Notes under the pieces: model-generated
What the model was told of the DNA's origin: nothing
The model's database searches: none
Seen by the model: only the letters and a program-made list of their open reading frames with translations
Translations under genes and position numbers: made by a program
From: Oligoflexia bacterium
Lineage (GTDB): Bacteria; Bdellovibrionota; UBA1018; CAIMNF01
Assembly: GCA_903845155.1 (NCBI GenBank)
Contig: CAIMWN010000266.1
Location: 3,517-67,516 of the forward strand
Reading direction: 5' to 3'
Length of the DNA: 64,000 nt
Shown: positions 23,276-53,781 of the stretch, one piece after another
Position numbering within the stretch: position 1 is the stretch's first letter
How the letters are laid out: each line of letters begins with the position of its first letter

Positions 23276-23497
23276 ATGGCACGCGTTACGATTGAAGACT
23301 GTTTAGGCAATGTTGAAAATATGTATGAACTCATTCACTTGGCGACTCGCCGTTCACGTCAAATCTTCAAAGGTTCTGATGTGTTTGTGAAATGTAAGAA
23401 TCGTACGATCGTGACTGCTCTTCGCGAAATTGCTGCCGGTAAAGTAAGACCACTTTATAAAGGTGCCGACGAAGCTCCACTCCCAGGCGAACTCTAA
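23276..23497 (+). CDS. rpoZ: DNA-directed RNA polymerase subunit omega
   Basis: MARVTIEDCL...YELIHLATRRSRQI conserved RpoZ N-terminus. GGAG Shine-Dalgarno sequence upstream. Confidence 0.9.
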   Translation: MARVTIEDCLGNVENMYELIHLATRRSRQIFKGSDVFVKCKNRTIVTALREIAAGKVRPLYKGADEAPLPGEL

Positions 23498-24779
23498 GAT
23501 TCAGCAATTGAATTGCAAGGCTGCGGTTTTATCTTTTTTTGTTTTAAGTGCTCCTTTTCTTTTAGTCTCTAGCGCAAATGCTTATCTGCAGTATGCGCCC
23601 AATGATCACGTCGCTGAAGAAGTGAGCGAACATCCTTTTCGCATTTTGCCTCACTCGGATCATTACGCATTCGCGATTGACTCTGATTTTTTCAAACCTA
23701 TTTTTACCGGCGGCGATAATTCCAATTATTATCGCTACGATTATTACCATGGCAACGGTTATTGGATGAGTATCAGGGCAGAGTTTAAGCCCGTGAGCAA
23801 AGCCACCATTAATTTAAAATTGAATCTTACTCATGGTTCTTCCAGCAATGGACCCACTTATCTTGCGGAAGTGATTCCCATGGCGGGCTTCACGTATGAA
23901 GAGAGTTTGCTCGGCTTTGATATCACCACTCGTTTAAGCGATATCGGACGTCAAACGGTGGGGATTGGTTTGTTTATTGAAGATAAAGAGACGGATGGCG
24001 GGTACATCATGTTTAAAAGAGATGAATTCGTCGGAAAAGTCATGGTGGATGGAACTGGAAGTTACCGACTTGATGGTGGCGTGATTGCAACCGATGTTTC
24101 GTTTTGGAAAGGTCTAGTGGGCGGAGTATTGTTTGTCCAAGAAACCGAAACTCCCTTTCATCCTCCCGCACTGATGGCAACCCTCTATTCCAAACATGAA
24201 TGGCCGTCGGGGATTGGGTATGGCGCCGAAATGGGCATCGATATTAATTCTTGGGCAGGGATGGCTTTTGTAAAATATGAAGATACTTGGAACCATTTCC
24301 ATTTTTGGCTTAAGCCTCAGGCGAGATACTACGGTCCACGGATTTTAGGTGATCTACCCGGTAAGGTATCTCAAAATTACATCTCGTATGATCAAAACGA
24401 TAAACCGTTCACCAACATCATGGATATTTTCCCTTTTGGTGACAATGTCGTAACCCTGAGTTCCCAATTAAATGCTGAATACGTTTTTAATTCTTTTTAT
24501 CGAATCTATGCAGAAACGGAAGCAGTTAATTATCAATACAAGGGCAAAGGGAAAATTCAGGAGTTGTTCTATCGTTCTGGCATAAAGTTTTTCCCGTTTA
24601 AGAGCCGAGAAGATAACTTTGGATTCCTGGTTGGAAATAAATACTTAATCGCTTCAACTGCCGTTTCGCCCGATTCAAGCTCGCGAACGTATTCGCTTCC
24701 CAATATGGTCGATTTTGAGAATAAGCCCTTATTCATGAACCAGTTGTATTTTATGATTAATTTCCAGTCGAAATTTTAA
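23463..24779 (+). CDS. outer-membrane beta-barrel-like hypothetical protein
   Basis: Signal peptide AVLSFFVLSAPFLLVSSANA. Alternating amphipathic strands. C-terminal ...FQSKF with terminal Phe, as in OMPs. Confidence 0.45.
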   Translation: MPTKLHSQANSKIQQLNCKAAVLSFFVLSAPFLLVSSANAYLQYAPNDHVAEEVSEHPFRILPHSDHYAFAIDSDFFKPIFTGGDNSNYYRYDYYHGNGYWMSIRAEFKPVSKATINLKLNLTHGSSSNGPTYLAEVIPMAGFTYEESLLGFDITTRLSDIGRQTVGIGLFIEDKETDGGYIMFKRDEFVGKVMVDGTGSYRLDGGVIATDVSFWKGLVGGVLFVQETETPFHPPALMATLYSKHEWPSGIGYGAEMGIDINSWAGMAFVKYEDTWNHFHFWLKPQARYYGPRILGDLPGKVSQNYISYDQNDKPFTNIMDIFPFGDNVVTLSSQLNAEYVFNSFYRIYAETEAVNYQYKGKGKIQELFYRSGIKFFPFKSREDNFGFLVGNKYLIASTAVSPDSSSRTYSLPNMVDFENKPLFMNQLYFMINFQSKF

Positions 24780-25020
24780 ATAGCACGTCAGGAGTACTTT
24801 ATGTGGAACTCGCTTTTTCATCCTTCGATTTCATTTATAGAACTCATCATTCGTGTCTTAGGTTAGTCCTTCTCAGTTATCTGATTGCGGTACTGAGCTA
24901 TCGTTTCGTGCCACGGGGAGATGCAGAAATTTAACTTGAAGTGGAGTTGGCCATTTTAGATTCAGACGGTTCGTTAAGTGTGATTACGTTGGGAAGTGCG
25001 GCGCCGAGCGGCTCATCTCA

Positions 25021-25836
25021 TTAAGAGGGCGTGCGCATGCGCTTGCTTCTTCTGGTTGCAGCGAGCACTGCCTTAATGAGTGTGACTCGCAGTTTTCCTT
25101 CTTCGAGAGCCATCAGTCCATCAATCGTGCAGCCTGCAGGAGTGGTCACTTCATCTTTAAGAGATGCAGGATGCTCGCCTCGTTCTAAAACCATCTTGGC
25201 AGCACCCATCATTGTTTGCGCAACCAGTAGCGTAGCCTGCTTTCTTGATATGCCCACTTTTACTCCAGCTTCGCTCAGTGCTTCAATGATTAAATAAATA
25301 TAGGCAGGTCCACAAGCGCTTAAGCCGGTTACGCCATCAAAGAGGGTTTCCTCAAGTAAGGTGACGAGGCCCATCTCTCCGAAAATGTTTTCTACCTCTT
25401 TAATGTGTGCTTCGCTGCTCCTGGGGCCTTTGCAAATTGCTGTGACGCCACTTTTGATTAAGCAAGGAGTGTTGGGCATGGCTCGTACGATGGCCGGCTT
25501 GTGGCCACTCCATTCTGAAAGCTGTTCCGTGCTGATGGCCGCGCAAATAGAAACGAGAAGTTGATCTGTTCGAAAAGAGTCCTTGCACGCTTTTAAAATA
25601 CTCTCCACCTGATGTGGTTTTACGGAGAGCAAAATGAGATCGGCATTTTTAATGGCACTGATATTGTCGGTCGTGCAGGGAATCTGAAGTTCATTTCGCA
25701 CTTCAGTAGCCGAAGCTTCGGTGCGAGTGGTCCCCGAAAGAGAATATTGAGATTTTAAAGCTGACTGAGTGAGTCCTTGAACGATGGCATCGCCCATTTT
25801 ACCCATCCCGATGATGGCGATTTTTTTAACTTTCAT
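25021..25836 (-). CDS. proC: pyrroline-5-carboxylate reductase
   Basis: N-terminal NADP Rossmann motif IAIIGMGKMG. ProC dimerisation-domain pattern. Confidence 0.9.
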   Translation of the reverse strand: MKVKKIAIIGMGKMGDAIVQGLTQSALKSQYSLSGTTRTEASATEVRNELQIPCTTDNISAIKNADLILLSVKPHQVESILKACKDSFRTDQLLVSICAAISTEQLSEWSGHKPAIVRAMPNTPCLIKSGVTAICKGPRSSEAHIKEVENIFGEMGLVTLLEETLFDGVTGLSACGPAYIYLIIEALSEAGVKVGISRKQATLLVAQTMMGAAKMVLERGEHPASLKDEVTTPAGCTIDGLMALEEGKLRVTLIKAVLAATRRSKRMRTPS

Positions 25837-26239
25837 CAGTTAAGAATAGACGAATTTTCATCGTGTTAAAACCGCATTTGTGTAAAAGCATTACTCTGCG
25901 TCGTCAGGTGGCCAAAAAGGTGCAATAAAGAGGCATTTTTATGGCAAAGTCTTACGGTGAATCTTAAAGTGTCTAAATGATGACGCCTAAAAGTTGAAGG
26001 AATCGAGGAGTGTGCTTGGTTTCCCCATTAAATTTTCTTAATCTTGAAACGATTTTGAAACACCCAGTGGTTGAGTGCTCCTTGCTCGGCTTGTAAATAC
26101 TCAGTATTTTGTAAGGAATATTTTGCTCTGGTTGAATGTTGCTCACTCAATGATTTTGATTGTTAACATTCTTACACAATCATTATTGACAAAAATAACC
26201 GCCAAGCGTAGTTTCTGGCAAAACAAAGGAGTCTCTCAA

Positions 26240-27793
26240 ATGAAAAAATATGGAAAATTAATGTCAGTAGTTACTACTGCAATGTTTGCGGTGGCATTAG
26301 TCGCTGCGGACGCACACGCACAACGTGGAAGATCGAACGCTGTAAGTTCGCACTCAACGCCAACTTATCATGCACCGGCACAAACTTATCACGCGCCAGC
26401 GCAGCGTGCGGCACCAGTACAGCGTGCAGCACCAGTACAGCACACACAAGCACCAGTTCGCCAACAACCAGCAAGCAATCAGGTAAAAGGTCCTTCAACT
26501 GTTGCTCATCAGCAAAGTACTGCGACTGCAAATCAACACAGTCAACAAGCTACTAAGCCTGCACAACAAAGACCTGCTCAGCAACAACCGGTTAAGCCAG
26601 CTCAGCAAAATAGAACTGCTCAGCAAGGCAGCAAGCCTTCTCAGCAACCTATCCATCACCAAACTGTAACTAACAAACCAAACGGTTCAGTTACTACTCA
26701 AGTGAGACATGGTAATACCATCAAGGCTACTACCGTTACTCCTACAGGAAGAACGAATACAGCTACCTTTAAAGTTGTGAAAGATGCGAATGGTAAAGAA
26801 CGCCAAATTCAAACTGGAGTAGTTCGCCAAAGCAAAAGTGGAAGAGTTACCTCAGAGCAGAAGTTTACTACCGATGCACGCGGCAATAGAACTGGTTATT
26901 CAGTTTCTCGCGGTGGAAAAACAGTATACTCAGTTGAAAATAAACGTTCAGGCGGCATCCGTGTGAGTTCAACTCGCACGTACGTACGTAACAACGTTAC
27001 GATCGTTCGTAATTATAGTTACCGCTCTTACAGCTACGGAAGATACAACTATAGTTACTACCACCCACGTTGGGATAATGGTTACGGCTACTACGGCCGT
27101 TCTTGGTATAACTACTGGTACAATCCTTGGACTAGCCCCTTCACTTATGCTTGGGGTTGGAACGCTTGGGGATATACTCCAGGTTGGGATATTTACTACC
27201 GTGGCTACTACCGCCCATACGACAGCTACAACAGCTTGTCTCTGTGGATGGTGGATTACACCCTTTCTTCTCTCTTAGCAGATTCTTATGCTGCCAGTGC
27301 TGCAGAAGTTGCTGATGCAAACGCAAGAACAGCAGAAGCCAATGCTCAAGCTGCTGAAGCAAATGCTCAAGCCGCTGAATCAGCTCGTATCAGTGAAGAA
27401 GATAAAGCTCAAATCAATCTTCAAGTTCAAGAAATCTTGAAAGCGCGTGCGAACGAAGACGAAAGTCAACGTGCGGTTCCAATGGAGCAAGTACTCTCTA
27501 AACCAGAGCACATCTACATTGTTTCTGAAGACACGACTGCAACTGATGCAAATAAAGTAACTTGTACTCTTTCATCAGGCGACTTACTTACTGCAATTGT
27601 TGGAACCGATGGTGTAGCAACAGTTACTGTGAAGACAGCACAAAGCGATGACTGTGCGGCAGGAACAGTAGTTCAGCTTTCAGCTCAACAATTGATTGAT
27701 TTCGAAAATGATTTCAATACTCGTGTTGATGAAGGAAATGAAAAAGCGAACAAAGATCCAGCGATTCAAAAATTGATTAACCCTAATCAATAA
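26240..27793 (+). CDS. secreted low-complexity protein: Gln/Pro/Ala repeats, aromatic-Asn-Gly-rich block, coiled coil, C-terminal domain
   Basis: AAAGGAG Shine-Dalgarno sequence at 26224–26230, ATG at 26240. Signal peptide. The ORF is open from 26075, but the internal start has the Shine-Dalgarno sequence. Confidence 0.6.
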   Translation: MKKYGKLMSVVTTAMFAVALVAADAHAQRGRSNAVSSHSTPTYHAPAQTYHAPAQRAAPVQRAAPVQHTQAPVRQQPASNQVKGPSTVAHQQSTATANQHSQQATKPAQQRPAQQQPVKPAQQNRTAQQGSKPSQQPIHHQTVTNKPNGSVTTQVRHGNTIKATTVTPTGRTNTATFKVVKDANGKERQIQTGVVRQSKSGRVTSEQKFTTDARGNRTGYSVSRGGKTVYSVENKRSGGIRVSSTRTYVRNNVTIVRNYSYRSYSYGRYNYSYYHPRWDNGYGYYGRSWYNYWYNPWTSPFTYAWGWNAWGYTPGWDIYYRGYYRPYDSYNSLSLWMVDYTLSSLLADSYAASAAEVADANARTAEANAQAAEANAQAAESARISEEDKAQINLQVQEILKARANEDESQRAVPMEQVLSKPEHIYIVSEDTTATDANKVTCTLSSGDLLTAIVGTDGVATVTVKTAQSDDCAAGTVVQLSAQQLIDFENDFNTRVDEGNEKANKDPAIQKLINPNQ

Positions 27794-27852
27794 TAGTCTT
27801 TTGGATTACTAAAATTTACATGACGGGGCGATGGACGATGTTCATCGCCCCT

Positions 27853-28383
27853 TTATTTTTTTAAATCAATAATGATTCGAGCGGGTGAAGTAAGTTCAAA
27901 TACTTCCACCTTCACCGGCACTTCAGTTTTAATGGTCCAAAGCCAACGGTCTTCAACCACAGATGGCACGAATTCAACTTCAGAAACGCTTCGAGTTTTA
28001 CGAGCAGCCTGAATCACGCTTTGAGAAGAAAAATCAATTTTAGGTAAACCATAGAGAGTGACATTAATTTCTTTGGTCACTCGATTCACGCTCACTAAAT
28101 AAAAGGGAGGTCTTGCGAGTTCACTTTTTTCACCTTGGTCGTTACCGGTCAAATCAATTACAATACGATCGTAGCCCGCTGGATTTGGTGCCATGCGGAT
28201 ATTGGTAATATGAAAATCGGAACTCAGGCGGTCGCCACCGGTAAATGCCCCTTCAGTAATATAGACATCTTTTTTCACTTTCAGTGCTTGTCTGAATCCC
28301 TCGGCGTCGAAAGAGGGATTGGCCAGAGTGGTGATTGGAAAGGATAAAGCTAAACCAAGTAACGCGAAAAGTGCTTTTTTCAT
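27853..28383 (-). CDS. secreted hypothetical protein
   Basis: Signal peptide MKKALFALLGLALSFPITTLA. ATGA overlap with the upstream metalloprotease gene. Confidence 0.45.
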   Translation of the reverse strand: MKKALFALLGLALSFPITTLANPSFDAEGFRQALKVKKDVYITEGAFTGGDRLSSDFHITNIRMAPNPAGYDRIVIDLTGNDQGEKSELARPPFYLVSVNRVTKEINVTLYGLPKIDFSSQSVIQAARKTRSVSEVEFVPSVVEDRWLWTIKTEVPVKVEVFELTSPARIIIDLKK

Positions 28384-30098
28384 CTTATGAATAGTTTACT
28401 CGATTTTGTTCTTCTGAAAAGTAGGAAATAAACTTTGGCCCCAATTGCAGTAAGAAAGGGAAGAAACCAAGCTAAGATGGATCCAAGTGGGATTTCTGAC
28501 TTGGGTGGATGCTGGCCATGTTTAAAATTGGCTGCATTCGCATTGCCGCAAAAACCAGCAGCATCTCGCGTGTTACCGGAACTTTTGACAGGTGAGCCCT
28601 CTGGCGACTGATAAACTCCTAGATCATCGGGCGGAGCGCATCTCGCATTACTGGGCAATTCGCTCGGGGCCGCTTTGGGTGAAGCATTGAAGGTAATGAC
28701 AAAATAGGGGACTGAGCTCGGAGTGATCGCGGGGGCCGGAAAGCCAGACGCGTGAGTGGCTTCGGCAGTCACTTTGACTTGAATGGGGCCATAGGCCTCG
28801 CCGGTGATTTTGCTATCAAAGATCTCGAAACTGGATTCTGCCCGATACATTGGGTTGGTGGTTTGAATCGGAATGATTTGTCCGCGTTCATCATAAACTT
28901 CAAGATTCACTTTAATCGGTGAGAGGAGAAGATAGGCGATCCCCGTAATTTGAAAGGGCCCGTGCGCATTGTATTGATAAACTTTAGTGGCCCCGACTTG
29001 AGTGCGGTCGACCAACATATCGGGTGTCGTTCGGATAGAAGAGAGAGGTACTGATTCCAATATTTCCTCACACTGAACTTTCATTTCACCCACTTCGGTA
29101 TTTAAACCTGACTGTACCAGATACTGATTGAGGTTGTGGCCGTCACTCGTGTTGAAATAAGTTGGAAAGCGATTTCCACTGCAGATTTGTGCAAAAGATT
29201 TGGCCTGAACTCCCGTAGGAACGGAATGTGTCGATCCTTGGAAGTGTTCAATCATGAGTGCGACACCCCCCGCTTCAAGGGCCCCAAAATAGAATCGACC
29301 ATTTTGGTCACTGTGAACAGACGCGATTGGAATTCCTCGTTGCTTTGATATTGCGGTGACCATGGCCCCCGCAACTGGATCGCCATTCGGTGCTAAAATG
29401 GTTCCGGTCAACGTACCTATCCCACTGAGATCCGAGGGATAGAGATGTCTCGCGCCGGCCCAGTCATCGCAGCCTATTTTTGATTGCTCTGCGTATTCAA
29501 CATAGAGCATGGAAGAATTGATATTTCCGCTATGGGACAAGCCGATTGCATGTCCAAGTTCGTGGGTGATGATGTTATTGAGGTAAACTTTCGGCCTTGA
29601 AAACTGGTGGTTGTGGCTTGAACTGGTATCATAAGGTGAGTTCGTCAGTTCATAATCGCGATCATTCAGCATGATATCTGCCTCAATGATGTCGCCATTG
29701 TTGCTGTTAAACCATAGTTTCGTGTACCCAATAATATTTTGATCAATGCTTTCTTGGGAGTTTGAAGCAAAGAAAATTGAACTTAAGCCATTATTTTTTA
29801 GGTTAGTTTCGTACTCTCCCGTAGTGCCTTGCCAATAATCAAAATCAACCATCCCGTGCGTGGCCCATTTCCATTGCTGAAGCCCGTCGACGACTGCAGA
29901 TCTAAATAGATCTGAGGGGAATCCGTCTCGTCCGGTAGGATTGCCCGCTAGAAAAAACTTTTGCCCATATTTCCACCGGATTTGCTTGCCTGTATCAGTG
30001 GTGGAAAGAGTATAGGCGAATGAGGTTTGAAGTTCAAAAATGGTCGAGAAGCTGAGCATTAAAAATAGAGGAACTGGCAAGAATTTCATTCGTGACAC
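28380..30098 (-). CDS. matrixin-like (M10) zinc metalloprotease with CarboxypepD_reg-like beta-sandwich and C-terminal hydrophobic anchor
   Basis: HELGHAIGLSHS (HExxHxxGxxH) with Met-turn SMLY. The segment TGTILAPNGDPVAGAMV...DQNGRFYFGALEAGG resembles a carboxypeptidase regulatory domain. C-terminus ILAWFLPFLTAIGAKVYFLLFRRTKSS. Confidence 0.75.
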   Translation of the reverse strand: MSRMKFLPVPLFLMLSFSTIFELQTSFAYTLSTTDTGKQIRWKYGQKFFLAGNPTGRDGFPSDLFRSAVVDGLQQWKWATHGMVDFDYWQGTTGEYETNLKNNGLSSIFFASNSQESIDQNIIGYTKLWFNSNNGDIIEADIMLNDRDYELTNSPYDTSSSHNHQFSRPKVYLNNIITHELGHAIGLSHSGNINSSMLYVEYAEQSKIGCDDWAGARHLYPSDLSGIGTLTGTILAPNGDPVAGAMVTAISKQRGIPIASVHSDQNGRFYFGALEAGGVALMIEHFQGSTHSVPTGVQAKSFAQICSGNRFPTYFNTSDGHNLNQYLVQSGLNTEVGEMKVQCEEILESVPLSSIRTTPDMLVDRTQVGATKVYQYNAHGPFQITGIAYLLLSPIKVNLEVYDERGQIIPIQTTNPMYRAESSFEIFDSKITGEAYGPIQVKVTAEATHASGFPAPAITPSSVPYFVITFNASPKAAPSELPSNARCAPPDDLGVYQSPEGSPVKSSGNTRDAAGFCGNANAANFKHGQHPPKSEIPLGSILAWFLPFLTAIGAKVYFLLFRRTKSSKLFIR

Positions 30099-30124: not shown

Positions 30125-30934
30125 TCACTTTTTTCTGTATAAAATGAGTGCAACCCCAAGGACCGCCATAAGAAGTCCTATAGTCAAGTATAGGTAAGTG
30201 TTTGAACTTTTATCACTATTTTTAATATCTTGAGAAGGCTGCTCGGAATTTGAAGCTTGCAAACTTGGGTGGTTCGCACTACTCGCGGGGAGATTTTTTT
30301 TAGTGAAGTTGTTTTGGGCTGGAGGCGGCGGTGCAACTGGTTGCGATACTGGTGTCGCCCCTTGTTCGTGAATTAGTTTTCGTAAATCGGGTAGGGTCCA
30401 CGGTTTCCGGTTCTCGCTGATATCCACTCCGCTTTGGTCTTGATGTGGATCGGAAGAGTGATTCTCTCTTGCGCCGGAATAATTAAAAATTCCTCCCGTG
30501 AGGACCACTTGTCCGTTCTGGTCTTGAAGTCCATACTTTCCAAGTTCAAGTCCGGTCACCTCAAAGGAGTGGTCTTCCTTTTCAGGTCCCAAGAAGAGTA
30601 CGGTTTCTTCTCCCTCGGTAAACTCGGGGGAGCTTGGAATTTCAAGCGTCATTCCATCTTTGGAGCCGCCAATTTTTCTGATTAGAATTCGGTTGAAGTT
30701 GAGGGTACCCTTGAGCACTTCCTTTACATCGAGATTGGCAAAAGTATAAATGGTTTTCCCCCCTTCGTTGGTTAGGCCGTTTTCGACGTGAATATTCGAG
30801 ATCATGCCATGAACGATGAATGCTGTAGACTTCGTAAATTCACTGAAAGGACGAATGTAAAAACTAGTAGCTTCACAGAAGTTGAGTGAGAAGAGGGTTG
30901 CGGTCAGGGATACGAAAAGGAAGTGCAACTTCAT
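30125..30934 (-). CDS. secreted Pro-rich protein with C-terminal TM helix + basic tail
   Basis: Signal peptide from the internal Met (MKLHFLFVSLTATLFSLNFCEA). PPPP-rich linker. C-terminus LYLTIGLLMAVLGVALILYRKK. Confidence 0.45.
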   Translation of the reverse strand: MKLHFLFVSLTATLFSLNFCEATSFYIRPFSEFTKSTAFIVHGMISNIHVENGLTNEGGKTIYTFANLDVKEVLKGTLNFNRILIRKIGGSKDGMTLEIPSSPEFTEGEETVLFLGPEKEDHSFEVTGLELGKYGLQDQNGQVVLTGGIFNYSGARENHSSDPHQDQSGVDISENRKPWTLPDLRKLIHEQGATPVSQPVAPPPPAQNNFTKKNLPASSANHPSLQASNSEQPSQDIKNSDKSSNTYLYLTIGLLMAVLGVALILYRKK

Positions 30935-30963
30935 ATAAACTAGCGTATCAATAAAGCTATAAG

Positions 30964-32742
30964 ATGGCACTCGTTCCTCGCTCAGTACTTGAAAAAACTA
31001 AATCAAGCGTCATTTATTTGTTACTGTTTATTTGCTTGATTCTCGCGGTGATGGGTATTTACCGTGGTGGGATTCATTTATCTGAACTCAAAGCTGAAAC
31101 CGTTTTCCTTCCTGATCTTCCCGGAGCAATATTTCTCTCCTTAATGCGAATGACCGCCGCTTATCTTGCCTCGCTAGTATTTGCATATGTGTCAGGAATT
31201 CTTGCGGCAAGAACTGCTATCGGTGAGCGCGTAATTCTTCCGATTCTTGATATTTTACAGTCGGTTCCTGTGGTGGCCTTTTTTCCGGCCGCGATTAGTT
31301 TTTTCATTGGAATTGCCTCAGGTCATCGCATCGGTGTTGAAATGGCAGCGGTGTTTTTAATTTTTACTTCTCAAGCATGGAATATTGGCTTTGCAGTTTA
31401 TGAAGCGGTAAAAGCGATACCTGAGGAAAATGAAGAAGCCGTATCGAGTTTAGGCCTTTCTCAGAGTCAGCGTTTGTTCGGCTTATATATACCAGCATCC
31501 ATTCCCCGCGTCGTTTACAATTCCATGCTTTCTTGGTCGAACGGTTGGTTTTTTCTCGTCGCTTGTGAAATTATTGCGGTGGGTCCAGTAAGGTATAATT
31601 TGCCTGGAATTGGTAGCTTTTTAGCGAAGGCTGCCGAAGACGAAAATATACCGCTCGTGTTGTGGGGGCTACTCGCGCTCGCGGTCGTCATCCTCCTTCT
31701 TGATTTCCTGATGTGGCGCCCACTTCTGATTTGGTCCAACCGCTTTAGGCAAGATGCGACTGCTAATCAAGACGCCGAGGATGTGGGTGTGTTTTTGAAT
31801 CTCCCGAAAACAATTGCAACGCGTCTCTCTTTTTTAACTGAACCGATTCTCAAAATTATTTTTGCCCTCACTTTCCCCATTCGGTGGATGTTCCGTGAAA
31901 TCTTATTTCCACTGTTTTGGGATTTGCCCACCGCACTCCTCTCGGGTCTTTGGTTTGAAGTGAGTCGCCCCGTGGAGCCGCTCTTTCAAAGAACTCAAAA
32001 AATTAGAACCGCGATCGGTTTTTTTGCTTTAGGTTTTTTGGTGGTTCTCGGATTTTTTTATATTTGGAATTCATTTAAGGGGCCGCTTCCTCCGGTCATT
32101 GCTGATATTCCCATGGGCATATTTTATTCGACGATGAGAATTTTTGTGGCGCTTCTGATTTCATTTTCTTGGATTCTGCCGCTCATATATTTTACTTGGA
32201 ATAGGCCTAAAATTCGCCATATTCTGACTACTATTGCCCAGTTAGGAGCATCTCTTCCTGCGACGGCACTCTTTCCGTTGATTGTGCTTGTGGGTGTACG
32301 TCGCTTTGGTGGGGGGATGGATTTTGCGACCCTAGTCCTGCTCACGTTTGGAATTCAGTGGTACATTTTGTTTAATGCAATAGGTGGGGTGGCGATTATT
32401 CCTTCCGATTTAATTGATGCCACTCGAGCATATGGCTTAACCCCATTTCAAACTTTTAGAAAACTTGTGCTTCCGTCCATTAGGCCCGCGCTCATCACGG
32501 GCGCGATCACCGCATGGGGTGGTGGGTGGAACGCGCTCGTAGTGGCCGAATATATTAGTGTTAAAAATCAAGTTATGAAGGTGAAGGGTTTGGGTGCACT
32601 TTTAAGTTATTCGGTGTATGAATTAGGGGATGGAAAGGCAATTTCACTTTGTATTATTGTGATGGTTGCCTGGATTTTAATTTTTAATTTATTATTATGG
32701 CAACCGCTTTACCACCGGAGTTTGGAAAAGTATAAACTGTGA
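30964..32742 (+). CDS. ABC transporter permease, fused double transmembrane domain (NitT/TauT-like)
   Basis: 592 aa. Two BPD-transporter-like halves, each with an EAA-like loop. 12 or more TM helices. Confidence 0.7.
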   Translation: MALVPRSVLEKTKSSVIYLLLFICLILAVMGIYRGGIHLSELKAETVFLPDLPGAIFLSLMRMTAAYLASLVFAYVSGILAARTAIGERVILPILDILQSVPVVAFFPAAISFFIGIASGHRIGVEMAAVFLIFTSQAWNIGFAVYEAVKAIPEENEEAVSSLGLSQSQRLFGLYIPASIPRVVYNSMLSWSNGWFFLVACEIIAVGPVRYNLPGIGSFLAKAAEDENIPLVLWGLLALAVVILLLDFLMWRPLLIWSNRFRQDATANQDAEDVGVFLNLPKTIATRLSFLTEPILKIIFALTFPIRWMFREILFPLFWDLPTALLSGLWFEVSRPVEPLFQRTQKIRTAIGFFALGFLVVLGFFYIWNSFKGPLPPVIADIPMGIFYSTMRIFVALLISFSWILPLIYFTWNRPKIRHILTTIAQLGASLPATALFPLIVLVGVRRFGGGMDFATLVLLTFGIQWYILFNAIGGVAIIPSDLIDATRAYGLTPFQTFRKLVLPSIRPALITGAITAWGGGWNALVVAEYISVKNQVMKVKGLGALLSYSVYELGDGKAISLCIIVMVAWILIFNLLLWQPLYHRSLEKYKL

Positions 32743-52944: not shown

Positions 52945-53023
52945 TCTTTATAGAAATCAGTTGATAGAGAACTGAACTTCTGATAGGAATTAAATCTCTA
53001 TTTTTTTCAAAAATGAGTGAACG

Positions 53024-53096
53024 AGCCCTTAGCTCAGTTGGTAGAGCATTTCACTTTTAATGAAAGGGTCGATGGTTCGAATCCATCAGGGCTCAC
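53024..53096 (+). tRNA. tRNA-Lys (anticodon UUU)
   Basis: Cloverleaf folded by hand. Acceptor GAGCCCT/AGGGCTC. D-arm GCTCAGTTGGTAGAGC. Anticodon loop CTTTTAA. T-arm GATGGTTCGAATCCATC. CCA encoded. Confidence 0.9.
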
Positions 53097-53112
53097 CATT
53101 TTTGAAAAAAGT

Positions 53113-53781
53113 ATGATTCTTTTTAATCCCCAAAATATTCTGATCATTGGAGTGTTGGTCTTACTAGAAGGCCTGCTTTCCATTGATAATGCATTAGTTC
53201 TGGCGATTCTTGCCCGTGGAGTAGAGCCCAAGCTTCAGAATAAAGTTCTAACTTATGGTTTAATTGGAGCCGTATTTTTTAGATTGTTGGCTATTGGAGC
53301 AGCGAATGCGCTGATTCAATTTTACTGGATGAAGTTTATTGGCGGGGCCTATTTGCTTTGGCTCGCTTTAAAATATTTTGTCATTGATGGCGAACAGGAT
53401 CGAAACAAACCCATCACGATGCGTAGCTTTTGGATGACCGTCATCTTGGTCGAACTTACGGATATTGCCTTTGCAATGGATTCCATTTTGGCTGCCGTGG
53501 CGATGACTAATCAGTATTGGATCATAGTTACGGGTGCACTCATTGGTACTGTGATGATGCGATTTGCGGCAATTGCATGCATTCGCTTACTCGAAAAGTT
53601 CCCGAAACTCGAAGATACGGCCTATATACTCATTACCATTATAGGACTAAAGGTGATCATCGAAGGTTTTCGGATTAACGGTGTGGATTTCCAATCATCA
53701 CATAGTCCATGGTTTTGGGCTCAATGGCTGAGTATGGCTGCTTCCATTGGATACGGATTCAAAAAGAAAGCTGCAACCTAA
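53113..53781 (+). CDS. TerC-family integral membrane protein
   Basis: MILFNPQNILIIGVLVLLEGLLSIDNALVLAIL conserved TerC N-terminus. The tracked ORF start at 53017 lies inside the tRNA and was rejected. Confidence 0.7.
   Translation: MILFNPQNILIIGVLVLLEGLLSIDNALVLAILARGVEPKLQNKVLTYGLIGAVFFRLLAIGAANALIQFYWMKFIGGAYLLWLALKYFVIDGEQDRNKPITMRSFWMTVILVELTDIAFAMDSILAAVAMTNQYWIIVTGALIGTVMMRFAAIACIRLLEKFPKLEDTAYILITIIGLKVIIEGFRINGVDFQSSHSPWFWAQWLSMAASIGYGFKKKAAT

Follow-up and report, generated by a model that had tools for sequence, protein, structure and literature searches.

In a 64,000-nt stretch of DNA from an uncultured member of the Bdellovibrionota (Oligoflexia bacterium, contig CAIMWN010000266.1; the whole stretch is called the window below), an open reading frame (ORF) at positions 26240-27793 of the plus strand codes for a protein of 517 amino acids (aa) plus stop. 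Judged from its sequence, this protein belongs to a large family, functionally uncharacterised, whose members are most numerous in Acidobacteriota; within it, the protein is a divergent representative from the Bdellovibrionota. We regard it as rather probable that the product is a Sec-exported, non-lipidated, modular protein of the cell envelope. A signal peptide, a variable Pro/Gln-rich linker, a beta-hairpin region, an aromatic domain, a W-x-x-D-Y helix, an Ala-rich spacer and a domain with two cysteines follow each other in this fixed order. An earlier note on this DNA had presented the product as a secreted protein of extreme low complexity. What appeared to be a low-complexity oddity is here recast as a member of a definable family, with its gene in a variable slot of Bdellovibrionota genomes.

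Family of the protein

A search of 5.8 billion proteins with the single sequence returned 11 homologs at 26-36% identity, one of them from Candidatus Sulfotelmatobacter, and those that reached the N-terminus all had the complete module order of the window protein. With a profile of the two conserved regions, at least 1814 clusters at 90% identity were obtained. A filter-only phmmer search of 1.84 billion representatives at 50% identity gave 755 hits at E ≤ 1e-3, 460 of them with E ≤ 1e-10, and the top hit was 44% identical. In a collection holding a single genome for each species, relatives were found at no fewer than 488 loci, the best 80 of which were all from Acidobacteriota except for one from Binatia; the patterns used there represented the Acidobacteriota consensus and could not find window-like relatives, so that this taxonomic picture is biased. 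Both conserved domains were present in 284 of 286 sampled proteins, and they were found together and in the same order in 82 of the locus ORFs with a domain hit. An N-terminal hydrophobic stretch was seen in 103 of 117 full-length members and a lipobox-like motif in one.

The Acidobacteriota members (from Terracidiphilus, Bryobacterales and Acidoferrum, and for instance P0002 of Candidatus Sulfotelmatobacter) are 24-36% identical to the window protein. They share with it the order of the modules, the invariant residues of the aromatic domain, the W-x-x-D-Y helix and the two-Cys domain, and their signal peptide and Pro-rich linker are of the same kind. The aromatic block of the window protein differs from theirs by two small insertions, WDNGYG and WGYT. 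Many Acidobacteriota members carry a Pro-rich tail and a BamE-like end domain, whereas the window protein ends 12 residues past its last helix and has neither. This extension was recognised by motif in 85 of the 286 sampled relatives, and Pfam BamE matched 11 of 84 relatives at E ≤ 0.01 (best 4.6e-4); the BamE-like end domain is present in part of the members and does not define the family. The traits by which members are recognised were all found in the window protein, namely the aromatic pattern ...Y.PW..P..Y.WGW...PW...Y..PY..., the helix motif, the two-Cys/GD domain followed by a helix with N and G, and the signal peptide with its linker. Within the family, it belongs to a lower-Ala subgroup with the motif LxxFxNxF, together with P0254-P0264 and P0272.

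The view of an exported, compositionally unusual protein outside any characterised family was borne out. Neither the protein nor its C-terminal domain matched Pfam (in the copy used), NCBIfam, PHROGs or PADLOC, and nothing below E=0.1 was found among the PDB sequences with profiles of the core or of the C-terminal domain. Two relatives (P0003 and P0009) bear a precomputed PF27998 label, the model of which is outside the Pfam copy used; that copy gave no family for either. The literature search found no mention of PF27998, and nothing relevant on aromatic-rich periplasmic proteins of Acidobacteria or Bdellovibrio. The members of the family number in the hundreds to thousands, a genome often having several paralogs, and none is annotated. 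Acidobacteriota rank with the most abundant bacteria of soils, and the biology of their envelope is poorly known. In several Acidobacteriota genomes the paralogs stand in tandem (loci L002, L022, L043 and L073), pointing to repeated duplication, and one protein of 807 aa (P0253) consists of two complete modules of aromatic and C-terminal domain fused head-to-tail.

Conserved domains and spacers

In order to separate conserved order from mere composition, segments of the window protein were scored against profiles built from 83 other sequences, with the window protein left out, and compared with 500 shuffles per segment. The aromatic block (residues 259-333) scored 18.2 bits, while its shuffles scored -21.5 ± 4.2 (maximum -7.9; z-score of about 9). 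For the block plus the following helix (residues 259-356) the values were 46.1 bits versus -18.0 ± 3.6, and for the C-terminal domain 45.9 bits versus 1.6 ± 1.7. Since these scores exceed those of the shuffles, the aromatic block, the following helix and the C-terminal domain are true conserved domains. The scores of the beta region (4.3 bits; shuffles 1.5 ± 1.5) and of the Ala/Asn spacer (-3.8 bits; shuffles -5.7 ± 2.3) could not be told apart from those of their own shuffles; the beta region is only weakly conserved with the Acidobacteriota members. The linkers of relatives are rich in P/A/G/S/Q and have another sequence and length, and the spacer, too, differs between members in both length and sequence, its likeness being compositional only. 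By these comparisons, the P/Q/A linker and the Ala-rich spacer are conserved in composition only, and neither of them is the Tyr-rich block. To speak of extreme low complexity was an overstatement, as the segment entropies of the 517-aa protein range from 3.0 to 3.9 bits and the composition-only state is limited to these two segments.

The structure was modelled by AlphaFold2 with an 84-sequence alignment, and all modules lie on the plus strand. Residues 1-27 (26240-26320) read as a Sec-type signal peptide with the site A-H-A/Q, and the model has a helix at residues 4-25. The N-terminus, MKKYGKLMSVVTTAMFAVALVAADAHA/QRG, shows the basic, hydrophobic and A-x-A parts of such a signal, and it lacks the Cys of a lipobox. 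The linker (residues 28-145; 26321-26674) is rich in P/Q/A/T and carries short peptide repeats, with 25 Q, 19 A and 14 P among the 117 aa of residues 29-145; it is disordered in the model, residues 24-135 having a predicted local distance difference test score (pLDDT) of about 35. The T/V/R/G-rich segment at residues 146-258 (26675-27013) is a beta-hairpin meander, modelled over residues 139-275 as at least 10 antiparallel strands with a pLDDT of up to 88.

The aromatic Y/W/G/P domain (residues 259-333; 27014-27238) is delimited by composition, invariant columns and the shuffle test. It is 75 aa long, not about 130 aa as had been thought before, and contains 22 Y and 8 W; Y/W/F make up 41% of it, along with G, S, N, R and five prolines. 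P276, Y290, P296, W297, W305, G306, P314 and W316 are invariant in the 84-sequence alignment, invariant columns were also seen in one of 12 sequences, and 28 of the 122 aromatic-domain columns are at least 80% aromatic among 284 members. A P-x-Y-Y-G periodicity considered for this domain was rejected, since the self-comparison of the profile (E=0.95) revealed no internal repeat. The domain is followed by a conserved amphipathic helix, SLWMVDYTLSSLLADSYAASAAE (27239-27307), with the family motif W-[LM]-[TV]-D-[YF]...L...Y, in which W336, D339, L346 and Y350 are invariant in the 84-sequence alignment. Because their spacing is i, i+3, i+10 and i+14, these four residues would lie on one face of the helix.

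In the model, this helix is the start of a continuous one at residues 333-381 (pLDDT of about 73-91), and a second helix follows at residues 386-404 (about 68-80). Together they account for the Ala/Asn/Gln/Glu spacer (residues 357-410; 27308-27469), which includes AEANAQA twice; the Ala/Glu/Asn heptad segment of the earlier note is covered by the long helix. The globular domain of about 100 aa that the same note had placed at the C-terminus was also recovered (27470-27790). Residues 421-513 are modelled as a compact domain with a pLDDT of 86-97, in which six short strands, flanked by two helices, lead into a long final one; modelled alone, the domain reached a mean pLDDT of 87.7 and a predicted template modelling score of 0.81. 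C442, D448, C472, N490 and G499 are invariant in the 84 sequences, and G447 of the GD motif is invariant in alignments of 12 and 22 sequences and nearly so in that of 84.

Reading frame and repeats

The frame at 26240-27793 is a real gene. A Shine-Dalgarno sequence, AAAGGAG, lies at 26225-26231 (+), 8 nt 5' of the ATG and ahead of the signal peptide, as had been noticed before. An intrinsic terminator with a 12-bp stem, 8 G-C pairs and a T-run is found at 27825-27861 (+) and separates the gene from a convergent AMIN-like gene. A longer alternative ORF with a GTG start at 26075 has no ribosome-binding site, and the same ATG was chosen when genes were called independently on L084, a 100% identical contig of 3.3 kb that comes from another sample.

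TRF detected arrays of 18 bp and 21 bp in the gene. The peptide repeats reported earlier are all present (TYHAPAQ twice, RAAPVQ twice and PAQQ three times), and AEANAQA likewise occurs twice, but they are not built from exact DNA copies, which differ at 5 of 21 nt in TYHAPAQ, 1 of 18 nt in RAAPVQ and 3 of 21 nt in AEANAQA. Each of these nine differences falls on a third codon position and is synonymous, which is direct evidence that the peptide encoded by this frame is under selection. The notion of a spurious ORF in a repetitive region could draw on the low-complexity segments and on the lack of the exact 517-aa sequence in the protein collection. It is refuted by hundreds of homologs with identical architecture, by the purely synonymous differences between the repeat copies, by the presence of Shine-Dalgarno sequence, signal peptide and terminator together, by the confident fold of the C-terminal domain and by a syntenic ortholog (L081), and we give it practically no credence. 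The conservation of the frame in relatives likewise disposes of the possibility, left open in the earlier note, that it is non-coding. Recent horizontal transfer was considered and rejected, as the G+C fraction of the gene (0.450) matches that of the window (0.440) and shows no compositional anomaly. A neighbouring protein, looked up on contigs, was not on record, and the JGI metagenome contigs, when scanned, yielded no close relatives.

Relation to known protein families

When the full-length and C-terminal models were compared with the PDB by Foldseek, no match was obtained at E ≤ 0.001. The matches of the C-terminal domain with the best geometry were SH3-like/SH3b barrels, among them the C-terminal domain of TagH (5bnd) and the SH3b domain of NlpC/P60 (3h41), with root-mean-square deviations of 2.7-3.8 Å over about 61-67 columns and a probability of up to 0.87, at non-significant E-values of about 0.5-0.8. 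These matches are small barrels of five or six strands, of a kind that binds cell walls, whereas the domain of the window protein is clamped by two long helices and has an invariant Cys pair; Pfam SH3 did not match the window protein.

The periplasm-spanning tethers TonB and TolA, and the SPOR-domain proteins FtsN and DamX, resemble it in general layout, with a signal for export or anchoring at the N-terminus, a long spacer that is disordered and Pro/Gln-rich or helical and Ala-rich, and a small globular domain at the C-terminus. However, there is no match with them in sequence or fold, and they have no counterpart of the aromatic domain. The signal peptide of the window protein looks cleavable, in contrast to the membrane anchor of TonB, TolA and the SPOR tethers. 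The SPOR domain of FtsN depends on a disulfide. In the order of secondary structure, the SPOR fold is beta-alpha-beta-beta-alpha-beta, whereas the C-terminal domain described here has six strands between two helices.

The choline-binding (PF01473), WXXGXW (PF12779) and RHS/YD (PF05593) repeats offer a similar context, dense in G-W, W-Y-G and Y-Y-G and rich in beta-hairpins. None of the three Pfam families matched the window protein at E ≤ 1; single matches to RHS_repeat just under the threshold occurred in two relatives, and by Foldseek the beta region was weakly, though not significantly, similar to the sheets of OspA and Rhs. Curli CsgA, FapC and prion-like domains are, like the window protein, biased toward Q, N, G, S and Y, and the amyloids among them are exported like the window protein. 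Curli and FapC have a core of imperfect repeats and a csg or fap operon, whereas the window protein has neither and shows order-specific conservation with invariant Pro and Trp. No curli- or Fap-type partner genes lie near the gene, its neighbours being proC, the AMIN-like gene and a metalloprotease gene. In a prion-like region, composition is kept and order is not; with a z-score of about 9, the aromatic block does not behave in this way. The window protein is not a member of the TonB/TolA/FtsN, curli/Fap, RHS, WXXGXW or choline-binding families, and its matches to SH3b domains are not significant.

Proposed role

As an envelope protein, the product would most likely stay in the periplasm. 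This is the default because the host is a diderm and the protein has a Sec signal peptide only, with no lipobox, beta-barrel or outer-membrane secretion tag. The C442/C472 pair probably forms a disulfide, which would fit an oxidising compartment. The disordered linker and the helical spacer would act as length-setting tethers, and the aromatic domain with its helix, on one side, and the C-terminal barrel, on the other, are probably two binding ends. They might bind a polymer of the envelope (peptidoglycan or polysaccharide), the surface of a membrane or another protein. On this view, the protein would serve as a scaffold or tether in the envelope and be neither an amyloid nor a condensate. The signal stretch found in 103 of 117 full-length members, the invariant Cys pair, the BamE-like extension of relatives and, among the non-significant structural matches, the barrels of TagH and NlpC/P60 point toward the envelope. 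BamE domains are known from outer-membrane lipoproteins that face the periplasm.

Several observations weigh against an envelope tether. AlphaFold2 gives no fold for the aromatic block, of which residues 262-327 are essentially unmodelled with a pLDDT of about 30 despite the 84 sequences, and the Foldseek matches of the C-terminal domain are not significant. The BamE-like extension is missing from the window protein, every family member is a "hypothetical protein" or has no name, and the 80 Acidobacteriota loci have neither a common operon partner nor a conserved neighbourhood. Furthermore, export past the outer membrane, e.g., by a type II system, is compatible with the sequence.

A more specific proposal, which we put forward tentatively, is that the Y/W/G/P block and the W-x-x-D-Y helix constitute a new envelope domain that would fold upon ligand binding or oligomerisation and bind a polymer or a membrane through ordered aromatic side chains. 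The candidate domain is found in at least 750 clusters at 50% identity, dominantly in Acidobacteriota, with scattered occurrences among Bdellovibrionota and further lineages, and it may be a new fold. If this were true, the family would represent a new class of periplasmic tether, with the SH3-like two-Cys domain (and the BamE-like one, where present) as the second attachment point. A conserved aromatic domain beyond the folding ability of AlphaFold2 offers a concrete target in the search for a new envelope-binding module. If the protein were only a structural tether, interest in it would be moderate and confined to specialists.

The earlier note had read the aromatic block as a generic adhesive, amyloid-like or phase-separating sequence, and the protein could accordingly be a secreted, extracellular matrix protein in which the Tyr/Gly/Asn-rich block drives self-association. 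This explanation agrees with the composition of the block (41% Y/W/F, besides G, S, N and R) and with the disordered and coiled segments on either side of it. The failure of AlphaFold2 to fold it is expected of a segment that becomes ordered only on assembly, and the fast divergence of the syntenic ortholog (31% identity versus 83% for ProC) is typical of surface-exposed proteins. Nevertheless, the block is strictly conserved position by position, with invariant Pro, Trp and Gly, unlike prion-like regions; five prolines lie inside it, internal repeats were not detected, and curli/Fap-like secretion partners or any other outer-membrane export signal are missing. In addition, the BamE-like domains of many relatives indicate the periplasm. 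The generic sticky sequence gives way to a position-specific domain with a fixed architecture (284 of 286 proteins), a matrix protein seems unlikely to us, and the amyloid or condensate reading is not favoured by these data.

In another explanation, the aromatic domain and the amphipathic helix would insert into or dock onto a membrane, making the protein a membrane-anchoring or -remodelling factor and not a polymer binder. Trp and Tyr, in which the block is enriched, favour membrane interfaces, W336, D339, L346 and Y350 share one helix face, and the unmodelled block would fit a segment that folds on a surface. BamE-type domains, present in relatives, have been reported to bind phosphatidylglycerol. 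However, past the signal peptide no segment reaches transmembrane hydrophobicity, the maximum Kyte-Doolittle value over 19 aa being about 0.65 at residues 329-353, and the proposal is one at the level of sequence; we consider it quite unlikely. Finally, as the host is an uncultured Bdellovibrionota, the product might be an exported predation factor of a Bdellovibrio-like predator, with the aromatic and SH3-like domains recognising cell-wall polymers of the prey. A gene in a variable slot that only some relatives have, adjoining genes for exported envelope proteins (AMIN-like and matrixin-like metalloprotease), and a rapidly diverging sequence are in line with this idea. Against it, the family is overwhelmingly found in Acidobacteriota, bacteria that are not known to be predatory, so that its ancestral function is not specific to predation. 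Moreover, a terminator separates the gene from these neighbours, which are encoded on the other strand, and they are kept in relatives without the gene. A predation factor is very unlikely in our judgement, and the envelope scaffold or tether remains the reading that we prefer.

Region upstream of the gene

Regulated expression had been suggested on account of an AT-rich upstream region of about 400 bp with partial palindromes. The 403-bp region has a G+C fraction of 0.375 (0.44 for the window), which is ordinary given that other intergenic regions here range from 0.30 to 0.50. The palindromes, of 10 nt and 90%, are both short and imperfect and, as read from the alignment, are not conserved upstream of the syntenic ortholog L081. 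The idea of regulation itself gains from a different observation. The promoter-proximal part, 26139-26231 (+), is shared with L081, 64 of 93 positions being identical (69%), compared with 39 of 102 (38%) further upstream. Because these 93 bp are 69% identical while the proteins share 31%, conserved transcriptional signals are plausible.

The shared region contains TTGACA (26186-26191) and TAGTTT (26209-26214) with a 17-nt spacer between them, and, farther 5', the conserved boxes ACTCAATGA and TTGTT.AC. The blocks CATTATTGACAAAA and CGTAGTTTCT are identical in both upstream regions and would fit a putative TTGACA-N17-TAGTTT promoter; a consensus promoter scan did not call it, the -10 hexamer matching at 3 of 6 positions.

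Neighbouring genes and related loci

The gene proC is divergent and lies 403 bp upstream. The best named relatives of its product are from Bdellovibrionales and from metagenome-assembled genomes of Bdellovibrionota, and others are 75-83% identical. The interval from the AMIN-like gene to proC (window 25021-28383) is a variable slot in related Bdellovibrionota. In L081, whose ProC is 83% identical, it holds a gene for a 679-aa protein in the same position and orientation, which has the architecture of the window protein at 31% identity. With orthologs so much less alike than the ProC proteins, the family evolves fast. The slot is empty in L082 and L087 and contains lon in L085, L086 and the P0135 contig. 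P0272, a Bdellovibrionota-like relative at locus L088 with 42% identity over the matched stretches, has an unrelated neighbourhood. Among the 80 Acidobacteriota loci, the best real neighbour clusters, a multihaem cytochrome and a Ser/Thr kinase, occur in at most 13. A model with an operon partner was ruled out by the lack of conserved neighbours in these loci and by the unrelated context of P0272; since no operon partner is common to the loci, the gene functions as a unit of its own.

Contig L084 (ENA GROS21-1 scaffold_17575; 3303 nt) corresponds to window positions 24099-27401 and comes from a different sample of the same project. Since the two sequences are 100% identical, one and the same population must have been assembled at least twice. 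L081 and L088 are also from the GROS21-1 project.

The presence of the metalloprotease gene next to the AMIN-like gene varies from genome to genome. In the window, it encodes a matrixin-like protein of 572 aa (27853-30098, -) with Peptidase_M10 plus CarboxypepD_reg and a weak match, below the cutoff (E=1e-11), to the MXAN_2677/2678 family of myxosortase-dependent proteases. Its C-terminus has a hydrophobic helix followed by a basic tail (ending in ILAWFLPFLTAIGAKVYFLLFRRTKSSKLFIR), and an adjoining protein of 281 aa (30125-30970, -) has the same kind of C-terminus (ending in YLYLTIGLLMAVLGVALILYRKK). In both tails, this looks like a C-terminal signal for sorting or anchoring, of the exosortase/myxosortase type, here in a genome of the Bdellovibrionota.

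Beside proC, a gene at 23463-24779 (+) encodes a protein of 438 aa without a match in Pfam or NCBIfam, and an unannotated gene for 412-426 aa occupies the same position in L082, L085, L086 and L087. The N-terminus of the 438-aa protein contains a hydrophobic stretch, aromatic residues and Gly are abundant in its sequence, and it ends in NFQSKF, as is often the case in outer-membrane beta-barrels; it may be an uncharacterised outer-membrane protein.

Far from the target gene, a tRNA-Lys(UUU) at 53023-53098 (+) is the only RNA gene detected in the window with Rfam. It overlaps the 5' end of an ORF with a GTG start (53017-53781), the start of which is probably wrong.

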